A stretch of DNA of 64,000 nucleotides from Betaproteobacteria bacterium. GTDB taxonomy: Bacteria; Pseudomonadota; Gammaproteobacteria; Burkholderiales; UBA3065. Below are positions 1,811-58,590 of this stretch, in pieces. Each line of letters opens with the position of its first letter. Within the stretch, counting starts at the first letter, position 1. The notes beneath the pieces were generated by a model. That model ran no database searches. It saw only the letters and a program-made list of their open reading frames with translations, and was not told the origin of the DNA. A program made the translations under genes and the position numbers. The DNA is taken from assembly GCA_027490755.1 (NCBI GenBank), contig JAIXXL010000037.1, forward strand, positions 4,352 to 68,351. Direction: 5' to 3'.

Positions 1811-1833
1811 TTACCGACACAAGGACATTTCCC

Positions 1834-26846: not shown

Positions 26847-27839
26847 ATGACCCGCCCCCGAGTTTCCCTTGTCCGCGCGGCTGACACCCGCTGGTATCAC
26901 TGCGTTTCGCGGTGCGTGCGCCGTGCATTCCTGTGTGGCCGCGATCCGGCGAGTGGCCGCGATGTCGAGCATCGCCGCGCATGGGTCACTGACCGCTTGC
27001 GTGAACTGAGCGGGTTGTTTGCCATCGACGTGGCCGCTTTCGCGGTGATGAGCAACCACTACCATCTTGTCTTGCATCTGGCTCCCGAACGCGCCACCGA
27101 ATGGAGCGACGACGACGTGTTGCGCCGCTGGACCCGCCTGTTCACGGGACCGCCGCTCGTGCAGCGCTATCTCGCCGGGGACGGTGCTCCGCTGAGCGCG
27201 GCCGACCTCGACTGCGTGCGCGACCAGGCTGCGACTTACCGCGGGCGGCTGCATGATCTGTCCTGGTTCCTCCGGCTACTCAACGAAAAGATTGCCCGCA
27301 GAGCGAACGCCGAAGACGAATGCACCGGACGGTTCTGGGAGGGCCGCTTCAAAAGCCAGGCGCTGCTTGATTTGCCGGCACTGATCTCGGCCATGATTTA
27401 CGCCGACCTGAACCCGGTGCGGGCCGGGATGGCTGCATCGCTGGAGGCGTCGGTACACACTTCCATCGCGCTGAGGCTCGCAGAGCGGGCATCCGGCAGA
27501 CCAGACGCGCTGCTGATGCCCTTCGATGCCACTGGCCGCGGCGCTCGGACGATTCCCTTTGGCTTGCAGGAATACATCGCACTTGCGGAGTGGACGGGCC
27601 GCCAGCGCCGACCCGGCAAGCGGGGCGCAATCACGCAAGCAACGCCACCCATTCTGGATCGCCTGGGTGTTCAAGAAGAGACTTTCCTGACGATGTCCGG
27701 TCAGCTTCTGGAAGTTTTCGGTAGTGCAGTCGGTTTGCCCGCGATGATGGGCGATCATTGCGCGCGCCGAGCATTGAGGCATTTGCGGGGCATTTCGGCA
27801 TCGCAGCGACCCCACGCGAACCGACGGGTCGATACGTGA
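26847..27839 (+). CDS. REP-associated tyrosine transposase (RAYT; IS200-like Y1 HUH transposase family)
   Basis: 'WYHCVSRCVRRAFLCGRD', HUH motif 'SNHYHLVLHL', 'GRFWEGRFKSQALLD', and the catalytic-Tyr region 'MIYADLNPVRAGMA'. Start taken at 'MTRPRVS' (track start 26784). Confidence 0.8.
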   Translation: MTRPRVSLVRAADTRWYHCVSRCVRRAFLCGRDPASGRDVEHRRAWVTDRLRELSGLFAIDVAAFAVMSNHYHLVLHLAPERATEWSDDDVLRRWTRLFTGPPLVQRYLAGDGAPLSAADLDCVRDQAATYRGRLHDLSWFLRLLNEKIARRANAEDECTGRFWEGRFKSQALLDLPALISAMIYADLNPVRAGMAASLEASVHTSIALRLAERASGRPDALLMPFDATGRGARTIPFGLQEYIALAEWTGRQRRPGKRGAITQATPPILDRLGVQEETFLTMSGQLLEVFGSAVGLPAMMGDHCARRALRHLRGISASQRPHANRRVDT

Positions 27840-27990: not shown

Positions 27991-28010
27991 ACGAAGTGAG
28001 TGTCCCTTTG
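27991..28010 (+). repeat. REP-like element copy R3 (right flank of RAYT)
   Basis: acgaagtgagtgtccctttg, 20/20 identical to 31031-31050. Confidence 0.8.
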
Positions 28011-29167: not shown

Positions 29168-29180
29168 AAGTGAGTGTCCC
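29168..29180 (+). repeat. REP-like element copy R4 (core)
   Basis: aagtgagtgtccc, preceded by gggcggacatcgg, which can partly pair with it. Confidence 0.7.
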
Positions 29181-29285
29181 TTTCTTATTATGGACTTGAT
29201 GCATTCGACCAATCGGCTATACATTTGATGACGTCCGCATAAATGTGCTGCTAATTAATAGCGGCAATAATCAAGGAGACAAGCC

Positions 29286-30983
29286 ATGACGGGGGATTTT
29301 TCAACTGGCAACGTGGTTGCATTGAATGACAGTTCGTCCGGGGGTTTCCACATTATCCCGGGCGGTGAACAACCGCCGCCACCGCCGCCTGACAGCATCC
29401 CCGGCGGCTCGCTTCCCGACTTTACCGATCCCGGCAGCATCGACTGGGGCAGCATCGATTTCGGTGTCATGCCGGTCAATTACGAGCAAATCGACTGGGG
29501 CGAGGTTGAATTCGTCGCATTCGATTCCTCGGATTATGAAAACATCGACTGGGGGAAATTCGACTTCGGCGATTTCGATAATGCCGCCGATTATTCGGCC
29601 ATCGATTGGGGCGCCGTCGACTGGACCGAGGTGAAATGGGCCGACCCGACGGCCGTCACTGCCATCGACTGGGGTGAAATCAGCTGGACCGAGTTCGAAT
29701 GGGATGATCCGACCACCATGCGTGCGATCGACTGGGGCGCCGTCGAGTGGACCGAAATCGATTGGGCCGGCGCCAGCGCCGATGCCGCCGCCATCGACTG
29801 GGGGATGGTCGAATGGTCCGAGTTCTCGTGGACCGATCCAATGGTGCTGGATGCAGTCGACTGGGGCGAGATCCAGTGGACGGAAATGTCGTGGGACGAC
29901 CCACTGGCGCTGTCCGGCATGGACTGGGGCGCGATCGAATGGAGTGAACTCGACTGGAGCGGGCCGCAAGCCGACGTTGCCGCCATCGATTGGGAGCTGG
30001 TCCAGTGGAGCGAGCTGAGCTGGGACGACCCGCTTGCGCTGGCCGGGCTGGATTGGGGCGAGATCGCCTGGACCGAGCTGTCCTGGGACGATCCGCAGGC
30101 GCTGGCCGGCATCGACTGGGGCGAAATCGAATGGACCGAATTCGACTGGACCGGCAAGACCGCCGACGCGCTGGCCGTTGACTGGGGCGTGGTCGAGTGG
30201 ACCGACTTCGACTGGAACGATACCGCCACGCTGCTGGCGATCGACTGGGGCGAGATCGGCTGGGATGAAATCGACTGGACCAACGAAGCCAATACCAGCG
30301 CCATCGACTGGGGCGACGTCCAATGGAACGAGTTCGACTGGACCGGCAGGACCGCCGACGCGCCCGCCGTCAACTGGGGGGCGATCGACTGGGCCGAGCT
30401 CAACTACGACGATCCGGCATTTGCGAGAAGCTTCAAATGGAGCGGCGTCGACTGGCAGGACTTCGCGTGGGAAGCAGACCCGGCTGCGGTGTCCGGCATC
30501 GACTGGGGCGCCGTCAACTGGAAAGACGTGTCGTTCAAGGCCGCCCGGGACGGCAGCTCCGACTACGCGCAGATCGACTGGGGACAGATCGACTGGAACG
30601 AGCTCGACTGGACCGGCCGGGGCTCGGATGCCTCGGTCATCGACTGGGGCGAAATCGACTGGACCGACATCGACGCCACCGCGGCCACCGCAATCGACTG
30701 GGGCGAGATCGACTGGAAGGACATCGACTTCACCGGCAGGGGCTCGGACGTCGCGGCGATCGACTGGGCGCTCGTCGAGTGGAGTGAAGTCGACTGGAGC
30801 GGCGCGGGCAACGACGCGCGGCTGATCAAGTGGGATCACGTCGACTGGAGCGAAGTCGACCTCGCCGACGATGCCATCGTCAACCATATCGAATGGAAGC
30901 AGGTCAAGCTGAAAGACGCGGCCGACATCGCGCTGATCGGGCAGCTGACGGGGATGACGATGACGGAGCTGGCGGCGCTGTAA
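29286..30983 (+). CDS. acidic Trp-rich repeat protein (about 20 units of three [IVLF]-[DE]-W-x-x pentads plus linker)
   Basis: 565 aa with AAGGAG RBS. 'AIDWGAVDWTEVKWADPTAVT AIDWGEISWTEFEWDDPTTMR AIDWGAVEWTEIDWAGASADAA AIDWGMVEWSEFSWTDPMVLD ...'. Poly-Pro 'EQPPPPPPDS' near the N-terminus. No signal peptide, TM or RTX motif. Confidence 0.8.
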   Translation: MTGDFSTGNVVALNDSSSGGFHIIPGGEQPPPPPPDSIPGGSLPDFTDPGSIDWGSIDFGVMPVNYEQIDWGEVEFVAFDSSDYENIDWGKFDFGDFDNAADYSAIDWGAVDWTEVKWADPTAVTAIDWGEISWTEFEWDDPTTMRAIDWGAVEWTEIDWAGASADAAAIDWGMVEWSEFSWTDPMVLDAVDWGEIQWTEMSWDDPLALSGMDWGAIEWSELDWSGPQADVAAIDWELVQWSELSWDDPLALAGLDWGEIAWTELSWDDPQALAGIDWGEIEWTEFDWTGKTADALAVDWGVVEWTDFDWNDTATLLAIDWGEIGWDEIDWTNEANTSAIDWGDVQWNEFDWTGRTADAPAVNWGAIDWAELNYDDPAFARSFKWSGVDWQDFAWEADPAAVSGIDWGAVNWKDVSFKAARDGSSDYAQIDWGQIDWNELDWTGRGSDASVIDWGEIDWTDIDATAATAIDWGEIDWKDIDFTGRGSDVAAIDWALVEWSEVDWSGAGNDARLIKWDHVDWSEVDLADDAIVNHIEWKQVKLKDAADIALIGQLTGMTMTELAAL

Positions 30984-31023: not shown

Positions 31024-33513
31024 ATGACTAACGAAGTGAGTGTCCCTTTGTCCCTAGCCTTCCCGTCGGTGCAGATTGCGCTCACCTCCGGCAAAAAGCT
31101 GGCCGAGCGTCGACTGGTCAATGAAGGCTTCCAGGGTATCCCTGACACGTTTATCGTGGCCGACGTCGATGGCGTGCCGGGGATGGAGGTGCTGCTGTCC
31201 GGTGCCGGGAACGGCGTGCTCAGCATCGACAAGCAGTCGCCGCTCTGGATACTGAAGGTGGCCGGCAACAGCCTGACGGTCGTCGATACGCTGAGTGCGC
31301 CGTTTTCCCGGGGCACCTTCCCGCTGGGTTATCTGCCCGGCATGACGCGGCCAGTGCTGTTTACGCCGGCATTTACCGACCAGTATCCGAGCACGTCGGC
31401 CTCGCCCTATTTCATCCCCGAAGGCAGCAGCTACCGCAAGAGCAGCACCAGCCTGCTGCAAACGCACGGCCCGAATGCCGGAAAATTCACGCCTGACGGC
31501 CAGACCTTTGTCGCGGTGCCGGCGCAATGGCCCGACAACCAGCGCGGCTTGTGGCTCGCGTGGCTCGACCTGCCGACGGCCAGCATCGCCTATCACTACC
31601 TCGGCCAGGTGAATGGCCAGGATCCCGGCGCGCCGTCATCTGCGATCATTCCCTCGACGGCCTCCACCAAGGGTGCCATTTTCCTCGGCCAGAGCTACTC
31701 CAGCGGCAGCCAGGTCGCCGACATCATCGTACCTGTCGACGCCAGCGGGACGCGACCGGTCATCGATGGCACGCGCCCGGTGCAAGTTTTCAACAACTAC
31801 TGGAACCTGCCGGAGAATTTCGCCAGAATCGCCTCGCTCGACAGGGTCAAAGACTACGAGTCCCGCAATCCGAGCAATGGCAACGCATCGCATGTCGTCT
31901 TCGCGGAGACCTGCGACCTCAACGCCGACGGCCTGCCCGATATCCTGACCGTACATGCCTACCGGGATCCATCGACGCACCTGATGCAGCTGGTGCCCTA
32001 CATCCAGCATCCGGACGGGAGTTTCACCCAGGAGGCGAACGAGCGCTTCATCGACTTCGACATCCACCAGGACAGCCCGTACCGGCTCAGCGTGATCGAC
32101 CTCAACCAGGACGGCCATCTCGATATCGCCTTCGGCAGCGTCAAATGGGATTTGAAAGACTTCCCCAGCAGCTCCAATGGGGGCGTTTATCTGAATGATG
32201 GCGAGGGTTACTTTGTTCGCGCTGCCGCCGACAGCGACCTGATTGCAAGATTCGGCTACAGCCAGCTGATCACGATCCCGGGAGAGAACGGCAGCTTCGC
32301 CCATGTGACCGTGCGCCCCGGCTCGATCTGGCCGTGGCAGTCGGCCGACGGAAAAGAGTATCCGATCTACGATCTCACCCTGCACGAGACGCTCTACAAC
32401 TTTACCGGACCACGTGGCACCAACCCGGCGCTGCGGGGCGCACCGGGTTTCAATGAATGGTTCTATCTCCGCCACTACCCCGACGCAGCGGAAGCGGTCA
32501 AGGCCGGCCGCCATGCTTCCGGGCTCGACTACTATCTCGCCGTCGGCAAGGCGCGCGGCGACCAGGTCTTTGCGAAGAACTCGACCGTGGCCGGTTCGGC
32601 CGGCGTCGATACACTGGTCCTCCAAGGCAGCAGTGCGCATTTCGTCGTCGCGGAGGTCGCCGGAGGCGGGCTACGGGTCACCGATACCTCGGGTCGCTTC
32701 GGCACGCTCACGCTGAAGGGAATAGAAAAGATTCAGTTCGACGACCGGCTCGCCGTCGTCGCCGGCGCGGCGGGCGGCAGCGCAATCCCGAGTGCCGCGG
32801 CCACCGAGGGCAAGGCCTTCACCTATGCGTTGTCGCCCAAGGCCTTCGCCAGTAACGGCATGGCCGTCGCGAGCTACAGCAGCGAGGATCTGCCAGCCTG
32901 GTTGCGTCTCGACGGACGCACCGGCAGACTGTCCGGGACGCCCGGTTTCGCCGCTGCTGACAGCTGGCCCGTCACCGTCACGCTGGTGGGCACGGACAAG
33001 GCAGGCGGCACGGCGACACGGTCGCTTCAAATCAGCGTCGCGAACACCGATCGCGTATCCGGCACGCGGCAGGGCGACACCTTGCAGGCCGGGCAGGGCA
33101 ATGACCTGATCAGGGGGCTGGCCGGCAATGACCTGCTGGCCGGTGGTGCTGGCAACGACACCCTCAGCGGCGGGCCCGGGTCCGATACACTGAGTGGCGG
33201 CATCGGCAGCGACCAATTCGTATTCGATACCGTGCCGTCAATACCTCAGATGGACCGAATCACCGACTTTGAAACTGCAATCGACCGGATCGTTCTCAGC
33301 ACCAAAGCCATGCCAAAGCTGAAGGGCATCGCCGACCGCACAGCCGTCTTCGTCACGGGCGACGCCAGCGCGGCAAACGACCATCTGCTCTACGCGCCGG
33401 CAAGCGGCACCCTTGCCTACGATGCCGACGGCAACGGACCGGCACGGGCTGTCGGCATCGTCACGCTGGGTGCAGGCACGGCTTTACTGGCAGAAGACGT
33501 GGTGCTCGCCTGA
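31024..33513 (+). CDS. FG-GAP/VCBS-like plus putative Ig (dystroglycan/cadherin-like) plus RTX secreted protein
   Basis: 'VADVDGVPGMEVLL', 'CDLNADGLPDILT', 'IDLNQDGHLDIAFG' (FG-GAP-like). 'FTYALSPKAFASNGMAVASYSSEDLPAWLRLDGRTGRLSGTPG' (putative Ig domain). '[45 protein letters not shown]'. C-terminus is '...GTALLAEDVVLA'. The start is uncertain because the first codons overlap REP copy R5. Confidence 0.8.
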   Translation: MTNEVSVPLSLAFPSVQIALTSGKKLAERRLVNEGFQGIPDTFIVADVDGVPGMEVLLSGAGNGVLSIDKQSPLWILKVAGNSLTVVDTLSAPFSRGTFPLGYLPGMTRPVLFTPAFTDQYPSTSASPYFIPEGSSYRKSSTSLLQTHGPNAGKFTPDGQTFVAVPAQWPDNQRGLWLAWLDLPTASIAYHYLGQVNGQDPGAPSSAIIPSTASTKGAIFLGQSYSSGSQVADIIVPVDASGTRPVIDGTRPVQVFNNYWNLPENFARIASLDRVKDYESRNPSNGNASHVVFAETCDLNADGLPDILTVHAYRDPSTHLMQLVPYIQHPDGSFTQEANERFIDFDIHQDSPYRLSVIDLNQDGHLDIAFGSVKWDLKDFPSSSNGGVYLNDGEGYFVRAAADSDLIARFGYSQLITIPGENGSFAHVTVRPGSIWPWQSADGKEYPIYDLTLHETLYNFTGPRGTNPALRGAPGFNEWFYLRHYPDAAEAVKAGRHASGLDYYLAVGKARGDQVFAKNSTVAGSAGVDTLVLQGSSAHFVVAEVAGGGLRVTDTSGRFGTLTLKGIEKIQFDDRLAVVAGAAGGSAIPSAAATEGKAFTYALSPKAFASNGMAVASYSSEDLPAWLRLDGRTGRLSGTPGFAAADSWPVTVTLVGTDKAGGTATRSLQISVANTDRVSGTRQGDTLQAGQGNDLIRGLAGNDLLAGGAGNDTLSGGPGSDTLSGGIGSDQFVFDTVPSIPQMDRITDFETAIDRIVLSTKAMPKLKGIADRTAVFVTGDASAANDHLLYAPASGTLAYDADGNGPARAVGIVTLGAGTALLAEDVVLA
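31031..31050 (+). repeat. REP-like element copy R5
   Basis: acgaagtgagtgtccctttg. Upstream GGACACTC (about 31008-31015) is the exact reverse complement of GAGTGTCC, giving hairpin potential. Confidence 0.8.
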
Positions 33514-33745: not shown

Positions 33746-33758
33746 AAGTGAGTGTCCC
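33746..33758 (+). repeat. REP-like element copy R6 (core)
   Basis: aagtgagtgtccc followed by TTTTT, 170 nt upstream of the TolC-family gene. Confidence 0.7.
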
Positions 33759-33928
33759 TTTTTAAAAAGGCACTAATTCCGGTGGCGGGGTATGTGACGT
33801 CGGTCACCAAATGCGCAATTGCTGTGGCTCCGGCAAAGCACACTTTAATTTCTTGACTGCGAAAACTTCGATGACGATCCGTATCGGTTAGCATTCGCAT
33901 TGGTTTATTTAAAACGGCATCAGGAATC

Positions 33929-35314
33929 ATGGTCATCGCAAATACAAGAAAAATGACGACTAAAAAAGCTGCACGGGCTGCTCGTGTCAAGGTTACGTAT
34001 GCATTGCTCGCTTGCCTGGCGAGCGCACCGGCGGCTGCCGTAAATTTGCTGGAGGCCTACCGGTTGGCATTGAACATGGATCCTGCCTTTCAAAGCGCAC
34101 GATTCGACCGCGCCGCAGGTGATGAGTATGAGGCGCTGGGCAGAGCAAACTTGCTACCTAATGTGGGAATCAATTACACCCACAGCAGTAACACAGCAGA
34201 TCGCACGATCACGCAATCCAATGGCAACCGGCAAACCGATAATTTGCAATACGACACCCGGATCGCCAGCCTTTCGCTGCGACAGCCGCTACTGAACCTG
34301 GATGCCTGGCAAAGATACAAGGGGGGAAAAGCCCAATCAAAGCTCAGCGAAGCGCAATTCGCGGTGCGTGCTCAAGATCTGATTACAAGGTTGACCACCA
34401 GCTATCTGGAAGCCCTGCTCGCTGAAGATCAACTCCGGCTCGCAATCGCCCAACGCGATGCGTACGATGAAAATCAGCGAGGAAACCAGCGCCTGCTCGA
34501 CATGGGGGTAGGAACCCGGACGGAGATGCTCGAGACAAAGGCGCGATTTGAACTGGCCCGGGCGGAAGTCGTTGAGGCACAAAACAACGTCATCAAAAAA
34601 CGTAATGCACTGGCCATCATTATTGGCCGCGATCCTGATCCGCTGAATGATTTGGCAGACGGACTTCCCGAACTACCTTTGGAGCATGCGACACTCGAAG
34701 AATGGGAAAGTATCGCAAGATCCGACAACCCCGAGATACTGGCGCAACGCTACTCTGTGGAATACGGCAGAACCGAAACGGAGCGATTTCGTGCCGGCCA
34801 TTATCCCCGGGTCGACCTTGTCGCATCCCACAGCCGCAATACCTCTGATTCCCTTTTTGCGTTCAACCAGCAGTCCACCATCAACTCCGTCGGCATCCAG
34901 ATGTCCGTGCCGCTTTATTCGGGAGGCAGCGTAAACGCGCAGACGCGACAAGCTGCTGCCCGGCTTGCTGCCGGACAGGCAGACCTCGACGCCACTTCGC
35001 TCAAAGTACTCCTCGAAGTACGAACACAGTTTCAATTAGTCAGCAGCAGCAGGATTCGCATGACTGCGATGGCACAAGCCGAACAATCGGCGGCTGAAGC
35101 GGTGGAGGCCACTAAAAAAAGTGTGACAGGCGGGCAGCGCGTCAATCTCGACATCCTCATGGCTCTGCAGCAGCTTTTCAAAACACGGCGCGATCTTTCA
35201 GAGGCTCGACACGGGTATTTGCTCGCTTACCTGCGGCTGAAAGCGGCTGCAGGAAGGCTGACCGAGGAGGACTTGGTCAAGTTGTCCGTATGGTTCAAGT
35301 CTGCCGATAGTTGA
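33929..35314 (+). CDS. TolC-family outer-membrane channel (T1SS OMP)
   Basis: 461 aa. Signal peptide '...ALLACLASAPAAA', 'NLLEAYRLALNMDPAFQSARFDRAAGDEYEALGRANLLPNVGINY', two-repeat coiled structure, and 'ARHGYLLAYLRLKAAAGRL'. Confidence 0.9.
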   Translation: MVIANTRKMTTKKAARAARVKVTYALLACLASAPAAAVNLLEAYRLALNMDPAFQSARFDRAAGDEYEALGRANLLPNVGINYTHSSNTADRTITQSNGNRQTDNLQYDTRIASLSLRQPLLNLDAWQRYKGGKAQSKLSEAQFAVRAQDLITRLTTSYLEALLAEDQLRLAIAQRDAYDENQRGNQRLLDMGVGTRTEMLETKARFELARAEVVEAQNNVIKKRNALAIIIGRDPDPLNDLADGLPELPLEHATLEEWESIARSDNPEILAQRYSVEYGRTETERFRAGHYPRVDLVASHSRNTSDSLFAFNQQSTINSVGIQMSVPLYSGGSVNAQTRQAAARLAAGQADLDATSLKVLLEVRTQFQLVSSSRIRMTAMAQAEQSAAEAVEATKKSVTGGQRVNLDILMALQQLFKTRRDLSEARHGYLLAYLRLKAAAGRLTEEDLVKLSVWFKSADS

Positions 35315-39415: not shown

Positions 39416-40804
39416 TTATTCTTCCTTCATTGACGCAGCGATGCGCTTGGTCAGCGGATGCAGGATGTATTGCAGCAGCGTGCGGCGACCGGTCTTGACG
39501 ACAATCTCGACGGGCATGCCCGGCTGCAGCTTGCGGTCACCTAATGTCTTGATTCCCTCAGGCGTAACGGTCACCCGGCCAAGATAATAAGGCGCCACGG
39601 ACGGGTTGTTCGGATCGGCCAGCACGTCAGTAGATACTGAGCTCAATACCCCCGAAACCACCAGTTGCGGGGAGTGCGCAAACGTATTGAAGCGAACGTC
39701 GACCGGGTCACCGGCTTTCACGCGGTCGATCAAATTGGGAGCGATTTTTGTCTCCAAAACGAGTTCCTCACCCTTGGGAACGATATCCATGATCTTCTGG
39801 CCGGGCTGGATAACCGCGCCGACCGCTTGGACGCCAAGGCCGACAACCTGGCCTGCAGCCGGGGACTTGATCTCGACCCGCGCAAGCTCCTCTGAAATCG
39901 CTTTGTAACGTTCGGCCGTCGCCTGGAGTTCCGGTCGAATCTGCGACATCTGGCCATCGACCTCCTTGTCACGCTCTGCCTTCAGTGAAACCATCCGCTG
40001 CTGGATATCGAAGATGGTCTGGGTTGCCTGCGTCTGCGTGGCACGGACCTGCGCCAGCGAGCTGCTGACTTCAGCGACGCGGCGCTCGAGATCCATCTGA
40101 CGCACCAAGGGTACATAACCTTCCTTGACGAGCTCGCGGATCTTGGATAGCTCGTCATTCAGCGAACCAGATTGAATCAGCAGATTCCTCTCGACCGTTT
40201 TAGCGGCCTCGATGTTGGACTCCTGCGTGACGATATTGGCCTTGAGTGAATTCATCGACGCGACCAGCGCTTCGCGGCGAGATTGGAGCAAGGTTCGTTG
40301 CACCTCCATTTGCCGCGACAGTCCCGGATCCCGCCGTGCCGCCTCGACCAGCGGCGGATCGAAAGCGATTGCCGGCGTACCGAGCTGCTCGGCGAGCAGG
40401 CGCGCCTCCGTTGCTTTCAAGCTCAGATACTGCTGGCGCACCATTTCGAAATTCGCCTTCGCCGTGCTGTCACCGAGCCTCAGCAGTGGCTGTCCGGCCT
40501 CGACGAACTGCCCTTCCCTGACCAGCACTTCCTTGATGATCCCTCCCTGCAGATGCTGGACAGCCTTTCGCTTGGTATCGATAGCCACTGAACCAAAGGT
40601 CGGAACACCTTCATCGAGCCCGGCAAATGATGCCCACAGCAGCATGCCGCCAAGGCCGAGGCCCAGCACAACGAAACCAATGCGCGAAATTCTTTTCGTA
40701 TCTGTGGGCAGATCGACGATCTTCTCCGCCGCACCGGGAAGCTGTGCAGGGATGGGCGCGAGATGAGGGTCTTTGCGGTGGGTCAGGCGCTGGTTGGTGT
40801 TCAT
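39416..40804 (-). CDS. T1SS membrane fusion protein (HlyD/AprE/RsaE family), locus 2
   Basis: 462 aa. TM 'IGFVVLGLGLGGMLLWASFAGL', coiled-coil middle, 'TGRRTLLQYILHPLTKR'. Paralogue of 1834-3201. Confidence 0.9.
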   Translation of the reverse strand: MNTNQRLTHRKDPHLAPIPAQLPGAAEKIVDLPTDTKRISRIGFVVLGLGLGGMLLWASFAGLDEGVPTFGSVAIDTKRKAVQHLQGGIIKEVLVREGQFVEAGQPLLRLGDSTAKANFEMVRQQYLSLKATEARLLAEQLGTPAIAFDPPLVEAARRDPGLSRQMEVQRTLLQSRREALVASMNSLKANIVTQESNIEAAKTVERNLLIQSGSLNDELSKIRELVKEGYVPLVRQMDLERRVAEVSSSLAQVRATQTQATQTIFDIQQRMVSLKAERDKEVDGQMSQIRPELQATAERYKAISEELARVEIKSPAAGQVVGLGVQAVGAVIQPGQKIMDIVPKGEELVLETKIAPNLIDRVKAGDPVDVRFNTFAHSPQLVVSGVLSSVSTDVLADPNNPSVAPYYLGRVTVTPEGIKTLGDRKLQPGMPVEIVVKTGRRTLLQYILHPLTKRIAASMKEE

Positions 40805-42528
40805 GCCGTGAAGTCCGGTGGGTTGTTCAATGCCATTCGTGGCTGTTCGCCTTGATTGATCTGACGACCGACGATTCCGTCTTTCAGTGCAACCACGCGA
40901 TCAGCGAGGTCCAGCAGGTTATTCTGATGGGTGATGACGACCACGGTGGCGCCCTGCTCGCGAAGTGTGGTGAGGGCTCGTGACAGCGCCAATTCCCCCT
41001 CCTCGTCCAGATTGGCGTTGGGTTCGTCAAGCACGAGCAGGGAGGGCTGTCCGTAAACGGCGCGTGCCATGGCGAGCAGCTGACGCTGGCCACCGCTGAG
41101 AAACGAGTTCTGCTTGCGAAGAATCGCGTTGTATCCGCCGGGCAGGCGCTGCACGGTATCGTGCACGCCGGCGAGCTTGGCGGCGGCAATCATTTTGTCC
41201 GGGTCGATGGTGCCAAGGCGTACGATATTGTCCGCGACGCTGGCATCGAACAGTTCATAGTCCTGCGGAAGGTAGCCGATTTCGGCACCGAACTGCTCCC
41301 GGTCGAGCGCCGCGATCGGATGACCACCATACAAAACGCTTCCCGAAACTTCAGGCCAAACACCGAGCAAAACTTTACCCAGTGTCGACTTGCCGGAGCC
41401 CGATGGACCGACGATGGCGACGATCTCGCCAGGCGAGAGCGTCAGATTGACGTTATCGAGAATCGGCCGGCTGCGGCCCGGGGCGGTCGCGCTCACGTTG
41501 CGCAATTCAAGAATGCGGTATCCGGGTAACTGGAGATCGCGCACAGCGGGCTTCGGAGCGCCGTCCAGCAGCGCGTCGACACGCCTCATCGCGGCCCAGG
41601 CCGTCATGAAGCTGCGCCAGCTGCCCACCATCGTGTCGAGCGGCGAAGTTGCCCGCGACATCAGCAAATTGGCAGCGATCATGGCGCCGATCGTGAGTTC
41701 GCCCTGAATGACGAGGATGGCGCCGGCCCCCAAGGCCAAAGACTGCTTGAGCAAGGTCACTTCGCGGGTGAGCGAGCTCATCTTCAGCTCGGTATCGTTG
41801 GCTTTTTCATTGATGGCTATTGACTCTCGCTGTCGCGCAAGCCACCGCTGTTTCAGGTGGCCGACCATGCCATGCGCCTCGATCACTTCCGCATTCCTGA
41901 GCTTGCTGTGAACGAAAGCATTGACCTCACGTTCCTCCTCGCTGGCCTCTTCCTTGACGCCGACGATTTTTCGCGAGCTGAGCAGGGCCAGCAGGCCGAG
42001 GTTCAGGACGAAAGCCACCGTGACCCAGCCGAGGAACGGGTGGAGCATGAACATCGCCGCGACATAGAGCAACGTCCACGGTGCATCAAAAAATGCAAAC
42101 ACCGCCTGACTCGTGATCCACTGGCGAACGGTAGCAAGATCAGCGAATGCCTGGGTCGGGTTGCCGGCGTCTCCACGCAACTGCTGATGAAACGTTGCGC
42201 GAAAAAGGGGATCGCTCAGGCGAAGATCGATCTTCAAACCGATCCTGACAACGATCCTCGATCGCAACCATTCGGAAAAGGCGAGCGCCGAAAGAAGGAT
42301 CAGCGCAATCAGGCTAACTGCAGTCAATGTAACCTCGCTTCGGCTCATCATGACGCGGTCGTACACCTGCAGCATATAGAGCGTCGGCGCCAGCATCATC
42401 AGGTTGGCGACCGAAGAGAACAGTGCGACGAGCCCAAGCTCCCTGCGAAAAAGCGCCAAGGTTCTGAGCACGTGTTTTTTCTGCACGCCGGGCAGCGAGG
42501 CGTGCGCGGTCAGGGTCGGATTAGGCAT
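40801..42528 (-). CDS. T1SS ABC transporter permease/ATPase (PrtD/RsaD class), second gene of a tandem pair
   Basis: 575 aa. 'GPSGSGKST', 'LSGGQRQLLAMARAVYGQPSLLVLDEPNANLD', 'VVVITHQ'. The stop overlaps the adaptor start by 4 nt. Confidence 0.9.
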   Translation of the reverse strand: MPNPTLTAHASLPGVQKKHVLRTLALFRRELGLVALFSSVANLMMLAPTLYMLQVYDRVMMSRSEVTLTAVSLIALILLSALAFSEWLRSRIVVRIGLKIDLRLSDPLFRATFHQQLRGDAGNPTQAFADLATVRQWITSQAVFAFFDAPWTLLYVAAMFMLHPFLGWVTVAFVLNLGLLALLSSRKIVGVKEEASEEEREVNAFVHSKLRNAEVIEAHGMVGHLKQRWLARQRESIAINEKANDTELKMSSLTREVTLLKQSLALGAGAILVIQGELTIGAMIAANLLMSRATSPLDTMVGSWRSFMTAWAAMRRVDALLDGAPKPAVRDLQLPGYRILELRNVSATAPGRSRPILDNVNLTLSPGEIVAIVGPSGSGKSTLGKVLLGVWPEVSGSVLYGGHPIAALDREQFGAEIGYLPQDYELFDASVADNIVRLGTIDPDKMIAAAKLAGVHDTVQRLPGGYNAILRKQNSFLSGGQRQLLAMARAVYGQPSLLVLDEPNANLDEEGELALSRALTTLREQGATVVVITHQNNLLDLADRVVALKDGIVGRQINQGEQPRMALNNPPDFTA

Positions 42529-44257
42529 GGGTCTTCTGCCTCGCTGCCTGCTGGGGGGAAATGGTCGGCACGTCCTTGCCCGCCAGTTTGTCGAGCACCA
42601 TATCGCGCGGTCCGTAAATTTTTGGCCTGCCCGCCTTGAGGATCAGCAGTCTGTCGACATAGGGCAGGATACCTTTCCGGTGGCTGATGATGACCACCGT
42701 GGTTCCCCGCTGCTTCAGGTGCTCGAGCGTGTGATGGAGCGCGCGCTCTCCCTCCTGGTCCAGGTTGGAATTGGGCTCATCGAGCACCACCAGCCTCGGA
42801 TCGCCGTAAATTGCTCGAGCGAGGCCGATCCGCTGCCGCTGGCCGCCAGACAGCAGGCCACTGTCTGCGCTGATGAGTGTGTCGTATTGCTCGGGAAGCG
42901 ACTCGATCATGTCGTGCAGCCCAACCAGCTTCGATGCCTCGATGACTTTCGAGCGCTCGATGTCGCCAAACCGACCAATGTTTTCGGCGATCGACCCCTC
43001 GAAGAGCTCGATATCCTGAGGCAGATAGCCAAGGTGGGGGCCTAGCTGTTCTCGATCCCATGCGTGAACATCGGTACCATCCAGCCTGACCGTACCGGCA
43101 ACGGGTGTCCAGACACCGACCAGCAAACGGGCGAGGCTCGATTTGCCGGAGCCGGACGGTCCCATGACGCCGAGGCTGACGCCTGCTTTCAGTTCGAACG
43201 AGACATTGCTCACAACGACCGACTTGCTCCCCGGCGCACGCGCAGTCACCTCCTCGACCGACAGGCTGCCCATGGGGGGCGGTAACTGGACACGCTGCCT
43301 CGACACCGGGTTATCGGCGAGAAAGATCTCCAGACGATCGCAGGCATCGCGCGCCACCGCCACCTGCTTCCACGAACTGATGAGCTTTGCAAGCGGCTGG
43401 ATAGCCTTCCCGCCAAGGATCGAGGCAATGATCATGCTACCGCCATGCGGCGGCAACTCACCCATCAGCGTCAGCACGCAGCCGACTCCCAGCACGAGCG
43501 ACCCCTGCGCGAGGAGCAAAAACTTGGACAGGCAGGCACTTACGCCCTGCGCCTCGGCCACCAGAGTCTGTGCGCGCAGGGCCACCGACTGCGGCTCGAA
43601 CCAGCGCTGCATCAATTTGTCCATCATGCCCATGGCTTGGGCAACCTGTGCATTCTTCGTGCTGGATGCGATGAACATCTGAGCTGCCGTCGTGCTTTGC
43701 TGCGATTCACGGACCAGCGGGTGCACGCGCCTCTCATTGAGCACCCCGACGGCCATGAGCAGCAGTCCAATCCCGATCGCGGTGAGCCCCATGACCGGGT
43801 GCATGAGGTAGACGATCACGAGGAAGAGCAAGCTGACAGGCGCATCCATCAATGCGCCCATGGTCGGTGAGGCGATAAAGCTGCGTACCGTTCTCAGATC
43901 GAGCAGGGCCTGACCCGAGCCTTGCGAGCGCGTCGCGAGGTGTGCATCAAAACTCGCCTGGAGTACACGGTCGGAGAGCTTGGCATTGAATGCGAGAGAC
44001 GCGGCAATCAGCACCCTGCCGCGAATCCATTCCAGCAGGCCCGACATCAGCAGCAGCCCGATCAGCAACAAGGTGACCATACCAAGCGTGTACAGACTAC
44101 GGCTGTTGATGACCGGACCGTAAACATCTTTCATGTAACCTACCGGAGCCAGCGACAGCAGATTGGCCACGACCGTGAACATCATCGCCTTCGCGAGATA
44201 AGGCGACAGCGAGGCGAGCGCCGTGCGCAATTCGGGTTTTTTTTCCGGGTTCTTCAT
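42521..44257 (-). CDS. T1SS ABC transporter permease/ATPase (PrtD/RsaD class), first gene of a tandem pair
   Basis: 578 aa. 'GPSGSGKSS', 'LSGGQRQRIGLARAIYGDPRLVVLDEPNSNLD', 'VVIISHR'. 8-nt overlap with the next ABC gene. Confidence 0.9.
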   Translation of the reverse strand: MKNPEKKPELRTALASLSPYLAKAMMFTVVANLLSLAPVGYMKDVYGPVINSRSLYTLGMVTLLLIGLLLMSGLLEWIRGRVLIAASLAFNAKLSDRVLQASFDAHLATRSQGSGQALLDLRTVRSFIASPTMGALMDAPVSLLFLVIVYLMHPVMGLTAIGIGLLLMAVGVLNERRVHPLVRESQQSTTAAQMFIASSTKNAQVAQAMGMMDKLMQRWFEPQSVALRAQTLVAEAQGVSACLSKFLLLAQGSLVLGVGCVLTLMGELPPHGGSMIIASILGGKAIQPLAKLISSWKQVAVARDACDRLEIFLADNPVSRQRVQLPPPMGSLSVEEVTARAPGSKSVVVSNVSFELKAGVSLGVMGPSGSGKSSLARLLVGVWTPVAGTVRLDGTDVHAWDREQLGPHLGYLPQDIELFEGSIAENIGRFGDIERSKVIEASKLVGLHDMIESLPEQYDTLISADSGLLSGGQRQRIGLARAIYGDPRLVVLDEPNSNLDQEGERALHHTLEHLKQRGTTVVIISHRKGILPYVDRLLILKAGRPKIYGPRDMVLDKLAGKDVPTISPQQAARQKTHA

Positions 44258-49864: not shown

Positions 49865-51040
49865 TCAGACGCGCGGCGTGTCTGAAGGCGGCTTCAATCT
49901 GACAGGGACGGTTTCGACAGCCTCCATCAGGCGATCGCGGCTGAGATGGGCGTACCGGCTGGTCGTGCGGATATCTGCATGCCCGAGCAACTGCTGCACC
50001 TCGTAAAGACTTCGGCCGGCATTGACGAGGAAAGACGCGAGGCTATGGCGAAGATCGTGAATGCGAAGCTCAGGAATGCCCGCCCTTTTACGCGAGGCGT
50101 CCCAGCTGTAATAGATGGATATGAAAGGTTTGCCAGTCGCCGGGTTGGGGAAAATGAAATCGGCACCGCCGCCGGCCTCGGCGTGCAAACGATGCAGCAA
50201 ACGCAGGGCCTCGGCGGACAGCGGCACGTGGCGCACCTTACCCGACTTGGTTTTTGGAATACGCCACAGCCGCAATTCAAAATCCACATCGCACCAACGC
50301 GCATCGAGTACTTCGCGCTTGCGTGCTCCGGTCAGCACCAGATAATGGACAATATGCAGCAACACACTGTTGGGGCTTTGCCGCACACTCTCGAGCAGTG
50401 CCTCCGATTGAGAGGGTGTCAGGAAACGCTCGATGCGGTTGTCGTCCCGGAGATTGAGCAGGTCTTTTGTGGGGTTGCGGCTGACGCCGTCGGCACCCCA
50501 CCGCAACGCGAGCGTAAATCCGTAGCGGATCAATACGAGAAATCTGTTGCAGGTGCCCGGCGCGTATCCCGCTGCCCGCATCTGGTTAACGGCATCGGCA
50601 ATGTCCCCCTGGGTCAAGCCTCCCATCACATGATGCCCCAAGCGGGGAATGACATGATTTCGGATCATCGAGTCGTCTGTATCCCAGCTACGTTTGTAGC
50701 TCTTCACAAACGGCAAATACTGCGAATTGAAAAAATCCTTGACCGTAATACCGGAGAGTACCTGCTCTTGTTGCTTGGGATCGATGCGGTTATGTGCCCT
50801 GCGCAGAATGTCACGCGCTGCCTCGCGTGCCTCGTCCAGGGTAATGACCCGTGCATCTCCCAATGTGATGACGCGCGGCTTTCCCAGAAGGCGGTAGCGA
50901 ACACGGTAATTCATCCGCCCATTGCGCAGGATGTCGACATAAAAGCCTTTCAAGAGGCTGTCGAATATTTCAACATGCGCACGCCCCTCAGGACACGAGC
51001 AGTTTGCCAGTAGTTCAGATGAGAGAAGCGTGGCAGGCAT
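49865..51040 (-). CDS. tyrosine-type site-specific recombinase (P4-like integrase)
   Basis: 391 aa. N-terminal 'GFYVDILRNGRMNYRVRYRLLGKPRVITLGDARVITLDEAREAARD' (P4-int arm-binding type). Catalytic region 'TGARKREV', 'HDLRHSLASFLVNAGRSLYEVQQLLGHADIRTTSRYAHL'. Confidence 0.9.
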   Translation of the reverse strand: MPATLLSSELLANCSCPEGRAHVEIFDSLLKGFYVDILRNGRMNYRVRYRLLGKPRVITLGDARVITLDEAREAARDILRRAHNRIDPKQQEQVLSGITVKDFFNSQYLPFVKSYKRSWDTDDSMIRNHVIPRLGHHVMGGLTQGDIADAVNQMRAAGYAPGTCNRFLVLIRYGFTLALRWGADGVSRNPTKDLLNLRDDNRIERFLTPSQSEALLESVRQSPNSVLLHIVHYLVLTGARKREVLDARWCDVDFELRLWRIPKTKSGKVRHVPLSAEALRLLHRLHAEAGGGADFIFPNPATGKPFISIYYSWDASRKRAGIPELRIHDLRHSLASFLVNAGRSLYEVQQLLGHADIRTTSRYAHLSRDRLMEAVETVPVRLKPPSDTPRV

Positions 51041-58200: not shown

Positions 58201-58590
58201 GGCATCAAAGGCTGTCGCCGCCTTCGTGTCGTCGATGTTCGCGTCATTGACGTCGACGGCCTTCTTGCCCAGCTTCGTGCCGCCGAAGGTCGACGTCTTG
58301 CCGTCGAAGGCTGCGTTCAGCGCGCCGTCGAGGAAGCGCACCGACACGGCAGTCGCGCCGTTGGCCAGCTGGAAGACGACGGTCTGTTCGCCGTTGGTCA
58401 GGGTGATGGTACGGCCCGAGGCGCGCACGGTGTACTCGGAGGCCAGGCCTTCGATGTTCAGCACGTCGGCGTTGGTGAGGCGACCGGCGATGGTCACGCG
58501 GGTAGCGTCCGCGCCGATGACGTAGGTGTCGGCGGCGTTCGCTGTGTCACGGAAGGTCTTGCGACCCGAAGTGGCAGTAAAAGTCGGCAT
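55249..58590 (-). CDS. RsaA-like S-layer / surface-array protein, T1SS-secreted
   Basis: 1113 aa with AGGAG RBS. No signal peptide. '...GGTFTLTTSVDSPTATSGNDTITGLIGVSGTFNVGDYIDGGAGTDTLSLNM...VENINLR' parallels Caulobacter RsaA '...LSLTTGTDTLTGTANNDTF...GGAGTDVLNW...IETMNV'. Long T/A/G/V/S/N-rich body. Tail is '...YLVVWTDGSDTYVSL...PGALVAANFDFV'. Confidence 0.8.
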   Translation of the reverse strand: MPTFTATSGRKTFRDTANAADTYVIGADATRVTIAGRLTNADVLNIEGLASEYTVRASGRTITLTNGEQTVVFQLANGATAVSVRFLDGALNAAFDGKTSTFGGTKLGKKAVDVNDANIDDTKAATAFDAGSGSGTTTTGGTFTLTTSVDSPTATSGNDTITGLIGVSGTFNVGDYIDGGAGTDTLSLNMMSGGQAPFVTLRNVENINLRLLEAGPGSALALNAQDWSGVTTLSFDNSLDETAIRVSGLSTTPTISVKNEVDVNLDYVGLTSGTDAVTVALTSAGSGGGTAESLASAGVADIDVDLDNAGLIDTMSVTLATGTNYATLEAGADLRTLNIGGAGNAYLSTDDTITALNASTASGNLDITLSGVSDVTVTGGAGNDTIRLGTTLSNNDSVNGGAGTDTVTVSVAGFNRNLNTTNVESATVTFTEAAGGTLNASASTTTAYTLAAGTAGNVAALEAVANGTTITLNDDDIGNVTLDYASGAASTTLNLGSVSGTVGVGTLAITDVANVTINAVGVSGTVGGSIGTASFDSDLKSLTIATSGGEADLAIGTDNGDMDVGGATSLTVTSNGSAGITFNNVDLAGSTLASVTINARGTDAADITVGDVSGSAITSIVLNATSGADVTVGTVDLGNNSTAGAAQNITISITQGANSDVTVGAITVTSQGTTTINVASNGTGGDLDVAAIVLDRAQNVTADSAPLNLAFGAVSVGASATYAINSIDAQNAGTGAQITFGAVTVGENADWSAGPISATATVNVDVSSVTLTVGSGASADLGAITTTAGEVGAVSLTLLGSDASAEFGAVAASAIGAYSIVAGSGAGADFGNIAAFSGGNASQGRVGAIAIAGVDGADVTFGTINASAVGAISVSGALNVTIGTITTTTLGEVNATGLGASGAFTIDLSGVSNSIEIKLGAGANTITSGDGNDVITLLGGRTAASGNDKIRFVSANGGVDNIINFIGGATASGGDQIELDVSEFATGIFAGDGSAIAAASDAVFSTGSGAAFTFDDNVILLTTAYASLTAMVTDLQADGTLASALADAASANYLVVWTDGSDTYVSLANVEGGSTGANTTLTLASASAVAITTLAQISGVSPGALVAANFDFV
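56904..57236 (-). repeat. near-identical 333-bp tract, arm 2 (inverted partner 52141-52473)
   Basis: See arm 1. Confidence 0.85.

Follow-up and report, generated by a model that had tools for sequence, protein, structure and literature searches.

An open reading frame of 565 aa in the window, by which we mean the whole 64,000-nt stretch of betaproteobacterial DNA analysed here, is a real gene and belongs to a real, unannotated family whose hallmark is tandem pentads centred on tryptophan. Judged from its sequence, the Trp-pentad block is best read as a new, previously undescribed repeat family, and with moderate confidence we regard as the best explanation of the whole that it represents a family of extracellular repeat modules exported by a T1SS and predicted to adopt a new solenoid fold. 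Several observations go beyond the first-pass annotation of the same DNA, namely that exoproteins carry the block as a module, that a subgroup of its carriers ends in a conserved C-terminal tail, and that the orthologues of the gene are under purifying selection.

The protein contains 59 Trp residues (10.4%), 125 acidic residues (86 Asp, 39 Glu) against 18 Lys and Arg, and no Cys, with a pI of 4.05 and a net charge of about -107, in line with the earlier description of an acidic protein with some 10% Trp and about 20 units of W-x4-W-x4-W. Distances between successive Trp residues run 5, 5, 11 / 5, 5, 11 / 5, 5, 12 and recur, W-x4-W-x4-W being strictly kept in units of 21, 21 and 22 aa, and the motif W-x4-W occurs 35 times, compared with 6.1 +/- 2.2 (maximum 14) in shuffles of the same protein. 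Within the pentad, the position two residues before Trp is hydrophobic in all 59 cases (30 Ile, 15 Val, 7 Phe, 5 Leu, 2 Met) and the position immediately before it is Asp or Glu in 43 of 59; Gly, Thr or Ser follows Trp in 40 of 59, and the next position is Glu or Asp in 36 of 59, including 20 of 20 middle pentads. Neither a signal peptide nor a TM segment is present, as had been noted before: the N-terminus is not hydrophobic and the highest Kyte-Doolittle mean over 19 residues is 1.05.

Table 1. Features of the Trp-pentad gene and its surroundings (window coordinates)
Feature	Position	Strand	Basis or remark
Shine-Dalgarno sequence AAGGAGA	29273..29279	+	6 nt 5' of the ATG; read directly
Trp-pentad repeat protein CDS	29286..30983	+	ORF list (stop codon included); acidic; substitution pattern against L007
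N-terminal Pro/Gly-rich region, probably disordered	29286..29438	+	aa 1-51; pLDDT <50; without signal peptide
Opposite-strand ORF, 671 aa	29301..31316	-	
Three degenerate 17-19-aa units, one Trp each	29439..29600	+	aa 52-105; type 'IDWGxhDF....DYxx'
Twelve regular triple-Trp units	29601..30368	+	aa 106-361; four super-repeats of 21+21+22 aa
Eight less regular units	30369..30887	+	aa 362-534; 18-25 aa, approximately eight in number
C-terminal cap and conserved tail IEWKQVKLKDAADIALIGQLTGMTMTELAAL	30888..30980	+	aa 535-565; conservation in relatives
FG-GAP / He_PIG / RTX exoprotein, 829 aa	31024..33513	+	Pfam; 40 bp downstream of the repeat gene
TolC-like outer-membrane factor (OEP)	33929..35314	+	Pfam OEP, E 3.8e-46
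Candidate export machinery (MFP and two ABC exporters)	39416..44257	-	Pfam
HlyD/AprE-type membrane-fusion protein	39416..40804	-	Pfam; AprE-type domains on record, same protein
PrtD-size ABC exporter	40801..42528	-	Pfam
PrtD-size ABC exporter, second	42521..44257	-	Pfam

A PPPPPP tract occupies aa 30-35, and the degenerate units that had been said to follow it do so (Table 1), reading IDWGSIDFG..., IDWGEVEF... and IDWGKFDFGDFD...; they match the 18-aa 'DWSKVxFGEFS' repeats of the large proteins P0007, P0012 and P0015-18. Pro-rich N-termini of a similar kind are seen in L007, L023 and the Synechococcus relative. In the less regular units towards the C-terminus, some Trp residues are replaced by Phe, Tyr or Ala, several linkers are GxGxD-like (TGRGSD, SGAGND), and pLDDT in the full-length model ranges from 52 to 91. 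The three-unit super-repeat is real but modest: TRF finds a 192-bp period in 3.6 copies, and identity between units is 0.49 at lag 3 and 0.46 at lag 6, compared with 0.39-0.44 at lags 1, 2, 4 and 5. This period had been proposed before and stands, but the linker cycle proposed with it ('DDP, DDP, G..AD' across the first 12 units) is strict for units 1-9 only, DP giving way to ND or TNE in units 10-11. Since the DNA copies of the repeat are only 60-66% identical to one another, the array is an old one that is upheld at the protein level, with no recent expansion.

Could such a repetitive frame be no gene at all, i.e. a chance or shadow ORF lying over GC-rich repetitive DNA, the alternative being the 671-aa ORF of the opposite strand? 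Several long overlapping ORFs in other frames and on the opposite strand would fit this notion; however, a strong Shine-Dalgarno sequence precedes the ATG, and comparison with the Oxalobacteraceae orthologue (L007) gives a dN/dS of 0.17 at a dS of 0.75 in the frame of the repeat protein, with Trp kept in 59 of 59 positions. Moreover, the protein pattern is retained despite the divergence of the DNA copies, and homologues of the protein block are spread over five phyla. The substitution pattern already refutes a chance origin, to which we give practically no credence, and the opposite-strand ORF is a shadow of the repeats. The gene is genuine and its orthologues are under purifying selection: when three of them are compared, Trp is identical in 55 of 55 positions and positions -2, -1 and +2 are identical in 79-85%. 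The orthologue in L007 has the same pattern of unit lengths as the window protein, and orthologues differ from each other by entire three-unit blocks. Gene calls on 13 metagenome contigs include the identical protein; a search of RNA runs found the gene in none of them. The intergenic region upstream of the gene is 180 bp long and AT-rich.

The statement of the first-pass annotation that this is not a known class (not pentapeptide, choline-binding, SLH, WD40 or RTX) is borne out by Pfam, NCBIfam, the PDB and the literature. The protein matches nothing in Pfam or NCBIfam even at E<=10, nothing in PHROGs or PADLOC, and no PDB sequence below E 0.01; no Pfam model spans the repeat block in seven homologues, and 16 repeat blocks compared with Pfam returned sub-threshold fragments alone. 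Searching the literature for the motif, for Trp-rich repeats and for Trp ladders retrieved only unrelated eukaryotic cases, and in a sequence-cluster look-up the family carried no names. One candidate, CdiI_ImmP (PF24172), gave weak matches in 5 of the 16 homologue blocks (best E 2.4e-4) and was rejected: the match examined covers 21 residues of the 129-position profile and reaches 12 bits against a cut-off of 33.2 bits, and the window protein has none. Relatives do exist elsewhere, a question that had been left for checking, and the family is rare, with 77 matches among 1.84 billion representatives in an exhaustive HMMER run; the latter was required, as a word-indexed homology search returned 5 and 11 matches and missed the closest relatives. 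The hosts are freshwater and marine bacteria; picocyanobacteria and lake methanotrophs are among them. If membership is defined by at least five tandem units, each of two or three h-[D/N]-W-x-x pentads and a linker, the window protein has about 20, and the unit pattern is common to P0001, P0002, P0004, P0006, P0008, P0009, P0013, L008, L023, L025 and others.

In what kind of protein does the block occur? It is found in RTX proteins with a T1SS-type end (P0001, P0002, P0004, P0009, P0010, P0014 and the Synechococcus protein in L009), in a protein combining an S8 subtilase, a P-domain and RTX repeats (P0013), in a giant Ig-repeat protein with a DUF4347-like N-terminus (P0006), and in proteins that carry a Sec signal peptide (P0086, L038/L039); its domain partners are extracellular ones, i.e. 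RTX, subtilase, PPC and Ig-like repeats. Uninterrupted runs of pentads occur in P0086, P0074, P0035 and L038. Because its relatives form part of proteins that bacteria secrete, the window protein is probably an exported module too, with a putative structural or binding role, and the Sec signal peptides of some relatives imply that the module is not bound to a single export route. As regards P0006, which adjoins ShlB and TPS-domain genes, its identification as a TpsA of two-partner secretion was rejected because nothing but a 200-N scaffold gap separates it from the preceding part of its ORF, which has a DUF4347-like start of its own.

A tail of about 30 aa (…DIALIGQLTG.T..ELAAL) ends a subgroup of the family that includes the window protein, at the place where others have RTX repeats. 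It is kept in L007, L023, L025, L026, L008, L011, L013, P0006, P0008, P0011 and P0013, and is spread over Oxalobacteraceae, Methylococcaceae, one Bacteroidetes MAG and unassigned metagenomic contigs. The window tail was aligned with eight others, more examples being found besides, and the alignment of the tail by itself is too variable for a pattern scan of metagenomes. The window protein displays the full cap pattern h-x-W-x-x-V-x(2-4)-D-x-x-D-I-x-[IL]-I, followed by ..TG.[ST]..[EQ]L... and the stop codon. The exchange is illustrated by P0006, where the W block and the tail take the place of the W block, RTX repeats and T1SS end of its relative P0014. The terminus of the window protein, E-L-A-A-L, bears a weak likeness to T1SS ends. 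In the full-length AlphaFold model the tail is predicted as two short helices with a pLDDT of 87-92; as it is predicted to pack within the fold, it may be a structural cap alone.

What fold might such a sequence adopt? For six regular units (aa 234-361), AlphaFold returned a model with a pLDDT of 90.5 and a pTM of 0.80, for which the input was a pseudo-alignment of repeat blocks that was shallow, two of the five models scoring only about 60. DSSP assigns each unit of this model the pattern HHH--HHH-----HHHHH, with turns that start at the first and second Trp and no beta strands. The full-length run, based on a 10-row alignment, has a mean pLDDT of 58 (below 50 in the N-terminal 233 residues) and shows the same helical-turn pattern in its confident C-terminal half. 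Foldseek found no match to the six-unit model in the PDB at E<=10; an armadillo-type fold, to which the top matches of the full-length model belong, was discarded as insignificant (E >= 0.3, TM ~0.2). The block is predicted to be a solenoid of single-turn helices at Trp plus a short linker helix, probably a new fold. Of the Trp-ladder solenoid that the first-pass annotation had suggested checking, the solenoid is present in the confident model, but its elements are single-turn helices and it is not a pentapeptide-like beta-helix.

According to this model, the elementary unit would be a pentad of a hydrophobic residue, Asp or Asn, Trp, a small residue and Glu or Asp; three pentads and a linker of 6-7 residues would form a unit of 21-22 aa, and about 20 such units would stack into an elongated solenoid. 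The first two Trp residues of each unit would each start a one-turn helix and the linker would form a short helix, while the invariant Trp together with the Ile or Val two residues earlier could, to judge by the sequence logic and DSSP, line up as an unbroken hydrophobic ladder. In a 'capping box', the N-cap position may be filled by the Asp preceding Trp and N3 by the Glu at position +2, with the flanking hydrophobic residues as a 'hydrophobic staple'; the pentad and the next residue, h-D-W-x-E-h, would correspond to what we take to be the N'-Ncap-N1-N2-N3-N4 positions of the box. Such geometry would account for acidic residues at fixed positions, beyond their mere abundance. In known proteins, the capping box and the hydrophobic staple stand at the start of a long helix, and the likeness lies in the predicted turns beginning exactly at the Trp of the pentad; here, by contrast, the motif would recur every five residues, so that the 'helix' would never extend. 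This arrangement would yield a rod whose surface is very negative.

The genomic surroundings point to export. The FG-GAP/He_PIG/RTX gene directly downstream, with no terminator found between it and the repeat gene, is a probable candidate for a co-transcribed partner and T1SS substrate. A gene of this type adjoins the repeat gene in three genomes (window, L007 and L023), the two being divergent and not co-transcribed in L007 and L023, and an RTX-type gene lies next to the repeat gene or close by in the window, L007, L023, L025 and L028. Two T1SS gene sets and at least eight T1SS-type substrates are encoded in the window, the substrates all ending in an acidic residue followed by three to five hydrophobic ones, to be compared with the E-L-A-A-L of the repeat protein; together with the RTX-type neighbours recognised by Pfam, these sets agree with the earlier placement of the gene among T1SS substrates. 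T1SS machinery was found near the repeat gene only in the window, the other loci having short flanks or lacking the genes. Within the T1SS cluster lie sugar genes (DAHP_synth_1/KdsA-like, SIS+CBS/KpsF-like, BNR_2 and GFO_IDH_MocA).

Two further claims about the neighbourhood fared less well. The gene had been described as flanked by REP elements, but there is no palindromic REP at its ends, the flanks carrying a dispersed 16-mer direct repeat; it had also been placed downstream of a MarR-like regulator, but the neighbour in question is divergent, has a sub-threshold winged-helix match alone (E 0.1) and is not conserved in orthologous loci. The 16-mer, AAGTGAGTGTCCCTTT, was considered as an operator common to the genes for the W protein, the RTX protein and the OEP and rejected, because the flanks of its copies differ and the orthologous locus has copies elsewhere and none upstream of the gene. 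Downstream in L025 and L026 lies an ABC protein of 879 aa; considered as a clue to the exporter, it proved to be an ABCG-type transporter.

As regards export route, cation binding and biological role, we infer that the protein would leave the cell through the T1SS encoded 3-13 kb downstream, its cap and tail (…DIALIGQLTGMTMTELAAL) standing in for the RTX block and secretion signal of its relatives, and that it may be produced jointly with its FG-GAP/RTX neighbour. Its extracellular role may be that of a rigid polyanionic spacer, or of a module that binds cations or surfaces. A bolder extension, which we consider speculative and rather unlikely, is that the new fold, with its capping-box helices and Trp/Ile ladder, and the tail together would make a self-contained, RTX-independent C-terminal secretion-and-folding module for T1SS, kept unfolded in the cytoplasm by charge repulsion and folding outside once cations screen or bind the acidic surface.

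Three other readings of the protein have to be weighed against export of a new solenoid. Perhaps it is not exported at all but is a cytoplasmic or cell-associated acidic protein, e.g. a chaperone or secretion co-factor of the FG-GAP/RTX protein, with the tail as a cap or partner-binding motif. The lack of both a signal peptide and RTX repeats, the adjacency to the FG-GAP/He_PIG/RTX gene kept in three genomes and the predicted folding of the tail would all suit a helper of this kind, which we deem possible though improbable: the block is covalently part of many exoproteins, some with Sec signals, the two genes are divergent in L007 and L023, and, to our knowledge, T1SS pathways rarely require dedicated 60-kDa acidic chaperones. 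An unlikely reading, in our estimate, is that of a glycan- or cell-wall-binding aromatic repeat of the choline-binding/CW_binding_1/CROP kind, whose exposed Trp residues would stack on the sugars of a polysaccharide (capsule or exopolysaccharide) that the neighbouring Kdo-type sugar genes produce. Trp arrays are a common sugar-binding device, sugar genes do lie inside the T1SS cluster, and the CROP repeats of the toxin TcsH, which likewise have a 21-residue period and an aligned Trp, are the sole match among PDB sequences (E 0.011 in one search, E 2.3 in another). That match is marginal, however (domain E 0.37, one Trp per unit aligned), CW_binding_1 of Pfam is not matched, and the model has no beta-hairpins; a hydrophobic residue two positions before Trp in 59 of 59 pentads suits a buried core more than a binding face, and a strongly acidic surface would be unusual for binding acidic Kdo-type polymers.

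The five-residue period raises a different question: is this merely a divergent pentapeptide-repeat protein, with the right-handed quadrilateral beta-helix of MfpA and Qnr (Rfr fold) and Trp for Leu/Phe, maybe acting as a cytoplasmic acidic DNA mimic? The pattern h-[D/N]-aromatic-x-x resembles A(D/N)LXX, the 15 plus 6-7 residues per unit come near the 20 residues per coil of the Rfr fold, four relatives have the uninterrupted pentad runs mentioned above, Pentapeptide_4 was matched at E 0.33 in one of the 16 repeat blocks, and the protein combines an extreme negative charge with the lack of a signal peptide. Yet neither the protein nor its homologues have a significant Pfam Pentapeptide match, the confident AlphaFold model is free of beta structure, Foldseek retrieved no pentapeptide-repeat structure although the PDB contains many, position i-2 is Ile or Val and not Ala, and the partners of the block are extracellular domains. 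Taken together, these points make a pentapeptide fold very improbable.

If the prediction of a helical-turn solenoid holds, it would add an undescribed architecture of interest to structural biologists and protein designers, with a simple, almost design-like sequence logic in which five residues would equal one capped turn, and three turns and a linker one layer; the 10% Trp would constitute a built-in fluorescence probe. If export is true, a conserved C-terminal module free of RTX would give a new handle on substrate recognition and ratcheting by T1SS, and, being found on stand-alone proteins as well as on large exoproteins, it could become a new secretion tag. In ecological terms, polyanionic surface proteins of freshwater and marine bacteria such as the hosts of this family could affect cation binding, aggregation or grazing.

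How does the Trp-pentad protein compare with known systems? With armadillo/importin-alpha proteins it would share three helical elements per repeat and superhelical stacking, but its units have 21-22 aa as opposed to some 42 aa, and its 'helices' are single turns of three residues. CROP and CW_binding_1 repeats likewise have about 21 residues, conserved aromatics and extracellular carriers; they differ in that one Trp per unit aligns and no Pfam match is obtained here, and in that CROPs are sugar-binding beta-hairpin solenoids, whereas the present model is helical-turn and strongly acidic. In the pentapeptide repeats (PF00805 clan; MfpA, Qnr), which are also solenoid-type and often acidic, a hydrophobic-[D/N]-large hydrophobic-x-x motif is likewise repeated in tandem every five residues. 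However, Trp takes the place of Leu/Phe and Ile/Val that of Ala, the pentads are grouped by three with linkers of 6-7 aa between the groups, and the context is extracellular; PF00805 and related profiles give no match at E<=10, position i is always Trp, and the AlphaFold prediction has one-turn helices and no strands, and hence no quadrilateral beta-helix with four pentads per coil. With the RTX repeats and C-terminal secretion domain of T1SS substrates there is a likeness in placement, the block lying at the C-terminal end of proteins or beside the RTX block. Like these substrates, the protein is acidic, Cys-free and signal-peptide-free, has an acidic and hydrophobic extreme C-terminus and some GxGxD linkers, and is linked to ABC/MFP/OMF genes, the latter in the window only. 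It differs from them in having no GGxGxDxUx repeat and no HemolysinCabind or Peptidase_M10_C match, GxGxD being confined to three isolated linkers, and in having a Trp-based core and a predicted fold that is not a beta-roll. Finally, whereas classical T1SS signals are poorly conserved, its tail of about 30 aa is conserved across phyla.

It is close to certain that the Trp-rich protein of the window is real and belongs to a new family of repeat proteins. Its ORF was recovered exactly where the first-pass annotation had placed it, behind an AT-rich spacer of 180 bp and a strong Shine-Dalgarno sequence (AAGGAGA) ending 6 nt before the ATG, and gene calls on 13 contigs from a single freshwater metagenome study give exactly this protein, with identical neighbours every time. 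The orthologue from an Oxalobacteraceae pond MAG (locus L007, 579 aa) has the same series of unit lengths, and at a dS of 0.75 the two genes show a dN/dS of 0.17 with 59/59 Trp kept; when a third orthologue (L023) is added, Trp is invariant at 55/55 repeat-region positions, and positions -2, -1 and +2 around it are 79-85% identical, with +1 and the linkers freer. The long opposite-strand ORF is a shadow ORF produced by the repeats.

The protein comprises 59 Trp (10.4%), 86 Asp and 39 Glu residues, only 18 Lys+Arg and no Cys, and has a pI of 4.05. Trp spacing (5,5,11 / 5,5,11 / 5,5,12) is nearly faultless across residues 108 to 352, and W-x4-W occurs 35 times versus 6.1 +/- 2.2 in shuffled versions (maximum 14). 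Position -2 from Trp is hydrophobic in 59/59 cases, -1 is Asp/Glu in 43/59, +1 is Gly, Thr or Ser, and +2 is Glu/Asp in 36/59, including 20/20 middle pentads. The three-unit super-repeat previously proposed is real: unit lengths cycle 21/21/22, TRF returns a period of 192 bp, unit-to-unit identity is highest at lags 3 and 6, and relatives differ by entire three-unit blocks. Since the units are only 60-66% identical at the DNA level, the array must be old and maintained at the protein level.

That the protein fits no known class was upheld: Pfam and NCBIfam scans gave no match even at E<=10, PHROGs and PADLOC nothing usable, and PDB sequences none for the protein itself and a marginal one at most for the repeat profile. 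In seven large homologues Pfam annotates other domains and leaves the Trp block (the array of units) blank, as does NCBIfam, and a scan of sixteen individual repeat blocks at E<=10 yielded sub-threshold scraps only; the most frequent, PF24172, was rejected, the examined case being a 21-residue match of 12 bits versus a 33-bit cut-off. Full-text literature searches (motif strings, Trp-rich repeats) found no description of the repeat. Does the family, then, exist elsewhere? It does, and it is rare: HMMER, run exhaustively against 1.84 billion representative proteins, gave 77 matches at E<=0.001, 26 of them at E<=1e-10, and genome and metagenome scans found relatives in Oxalobacteraceae, Methylococcaceae, Chthoniobacteraceae, marine Synechococcus and Prochlorococcus, and one Bacteroidetes MAG.

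The Trp block is modular. In proteins both small and large (P0001, P0002, P0004, P0009, P0010, P0014 and a 594-aa Synechococcus protein) it precedes RTX repeats and an end of T1SS type; in P0013 it comes after a subtilase, a P-domain, RTX repeats and a linker rich in proline, and in the giant Ig-repeat protein P0006 it stands at the end. Uninterrupted pentad runs follow the Sec signal peptide of P0086 and of L038/L039 and end the S8 protease P0074. Because the block occurs in these settings, some of them bare pentad runs, its elementary unit is the pentad h-[D/N]-W-x-x (h, hydrophobic). All its identifiable partner domains are extracellular, and the degenerate N-terminal units tie the window protein to a wider set of proteins of 1000-1500 aa with 18-aa single-Trp repeats. 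The C-terminal ends of L038, L039, P0074 and P0035, some of which carry Sec signal peptides or an S8 protease domain, are long unbroken single-pentad runs (VNWNA, IDWTG, VNWNS; ~30 copies of IDWTG in P0074), a linker-less version of the Trp-pentad. In the Synechococcus protein, seven near-identical 22-aa Trp units (DADAEAIDWGAVDWGDLDWDGP) are preceded by proline-rich 'PEGSYPPAIDPETG' repeats and followed by an RTX-like C-terminus that closes with NADFV; copies so alike suggest a recent expansion in a marine picocyanobacterium.

Every Trp block is closed by a cap, h-x-W-x-x-V…ELD..D, which in one subgroup, the window protein included, is followed by ~20 conserved residues (…DIALIGQLTGMTMTELAAL) and the stop. 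This tail is shared with both orthologues and is present in stand-alone proteins of 295-671 aa (L025, L026, L008, L011), none of which has a signal peptide, in a Bacteroidetes locus (L013) and in P0006, P0008, P0011 and P0013. The homology of P0006 with P0014 extends as far as the Trp block and into it; from there P0014 continues into RTX repeats and a classical end, whereas P0006 ends in the tail. P0006 adjoins two-partner-secretion genes, with ShlB/TpsB, CHAT-TPR and TPS-domain genes immediately upstream of it; it was ruled out as a TpsA because its ORF, interrupted by nothing but a scaffold gap, has a DUF4347-like start of its own, and the real protein, starting at ~6367, would have ~2500 aa.

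Coordinates of features in the window and, where a locus is named, in relatives
Feature	Position	Strand	Remarks
W gene	29286..30983	+	565 aa
16-mer AAGTGAGTGTCCCTTT, exact copies	27994-28009, 29168-29183, 31034-31049, 33746-33761	+	
16-mer AAGTGAGTGTCCCTTT, further sites	24650-24665 (-); L007 11664-11679 (-), 12509-12524 (+)		
351-aa ORF	26784-27839	+	HxH-type 'NHYHLVLH' motif; sub-threshold IS200-like Y1 transposase match, E 0.1
First T1SS gene set	95-3201		
Second T1SS, OEP	33929-35314	+	
Second T1SS, MFP	39416	-	AprE-type
Second T1SS, two ABC exporters	40801, 42521	-	PrtD-size (575 and 578 aa); set spans 39416-44257
Tyrosine integrase	49865..51040	-	
Pair of large acidic proteins	51240-54092 (+); 55249-58590 (-)		950 aa; 1113 aa
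1108-aa protein	17568-20897	-	15 ALTTAQ repeats; Pfam PF20080, E 2.9e-110
P0006, true extent	L019 6367-13939		gene call split by 200-N scaffold gap
Synechococcus sp. MIT S1220 protein	L009 9659-11443		594 aa
Linker-less pentad proteins	L038 2156-3802; L039 7633-9279		also P0074, P0035

G+C is 0.56-0.64 at ~28000-58700 and 0.65-0.76 on both sides; this stretch, which may be a genomic island, holds the W gene, its RTX neighbour, a complete T1SS, Kdo-type sugar genes, a TPR protein, the integrase and two further T1SS-type substrates, and no tRNA gene was found in the window. The second T1SS is four-component and interleaved with sugar-metabolism genes: two tandem ABC exporter genes adjoin the single membrane-fusion gene, BNR_2, KdsA-like, GFO_IDH_MocA and DUF6807 genes lie between these and the OEP gene, and a KpsF-like SIS+CBS gene lies beyond. 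The two large acidic proteins have near-identical C-termini (…GSLVAANFDFV and …GALVAANFDFV) and are probably paralogous T1SS substrates sharing a secretion signal. The 16-mer has four exact copies in the window (expected 0.17), inside or bordering the intergenic gaps around the W, RTX and OEP genes and with mutually unrelated flanks; it seems to be a short genomic repeat dispersed in this lineage, and the orthologous locus has near-copies, none upstream of its W gene. The annotated start of the 829-aa RTX ORF is overlapped by one of the copies, so that this ORF may really begin farther downstream. The 351-aa ORF may be a relative of REP-associated tyrosine transposases; all Logan contigs with the W gene break ~90 bp upstream of it, as expected for a repeated element.

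As annotated earlier, neither signal peptide nor membrane segment is present in the window protein sequence, and its position between T1SS substrates is confirmed by surroundings rich in secretion genes, with two T1SS gene sets and at least eight RTX-type or similar substrates in the window. The C-termini of these substrates have an acidic residue and then 3-5 hydrophobic residues as their last; in the Trp protein the last residues are ELAAL. A gap of 40 bp, in which no terminator was found, separates the W gene from the one downstream, which encodes the FG-GAP/He_PIG/RTX protein, and a gene of the same architecture adjoins the orthologues in L007 and L023 in divergent orientation; RTX-type genes also lie near relatives in L025 and L028, and no T1SS machinery genes were seen in the flanks of these four loci. 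Our best reading of the protein, as a whole slightly above an even chance, is a hitherto undescribed solenoid module acting outside the cell, its core formed of Trp/Ile and its surface polyanionic; it would be exported without a signal peptide, probably via the neighbouring T1SS, with cap and tail standing in for RTX block and signal, and would function as a stiff acidic spacer or bind cations or surfaces. An extracellular location is likely, the T1SS as its route about a toss-up, and cation-dependent folding a guess; that the block combines a new fold with a new type of secretion module independent of RTX is doubtful. It is improbable that the protein is instead a non-exported partner of the RTX neighbour, and that the ORF is no gene is hardly worth entertaining, given its strong Shine-Dalgarno sequence, low dN/dS and fully retained Trp.

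The earlier question of a Trp-ladder solenoid is answered in part by a confident six-unit AlphaFold model, which predicts a solenoid; the Trp residues may well be buried in it. A full-length run on a 10-row alignment was confident in the C-terminal half only; a second, on residues 234-361 with 16 in-register six-unit blocks from family members, reached pLDDT 90.5 and pTM 0.80, with 3/5 models above 85. Both runs give the unit pattern HHH--HHH-----HHHHH, with three-residue helical turns beginning exactly at Trp1 and Trp2, the third pentad extended, the linker a short helix and no beta strands. The string h-D-W-x-E-h may be read as a helix capping box plus hydrophobic staple, with its residues at N'-Ncap-N1-N2-N3-N4, which would explain the fixed Asp/Glu positions and the helical turns. 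Foldseek with the full-length model retrieved armadillo-type solenoids only, insignificantly, and with the residues 234-361 model no PDB entry at E<=10, so that none of the many pentapeptide-repeat or CROP structures matched; with strandless models as well, a divergent pentapeptide beta-helix or DNA mimic is very unlikely. A glycan-binding aromatic repeat akin to CROPs is unlikely: the repeat profile's sole PDB match, to the 21-residue CROP repeats of a clostridial toxin, is marginal at E 0.011 and aligns one Trp per unit. The Trp-pentad repeat, its predicted fold and its tail, undescribed in any resource searched, are the new part, and the familiar part is the tandem-repeat solenoid module of bacterial exoproteins.
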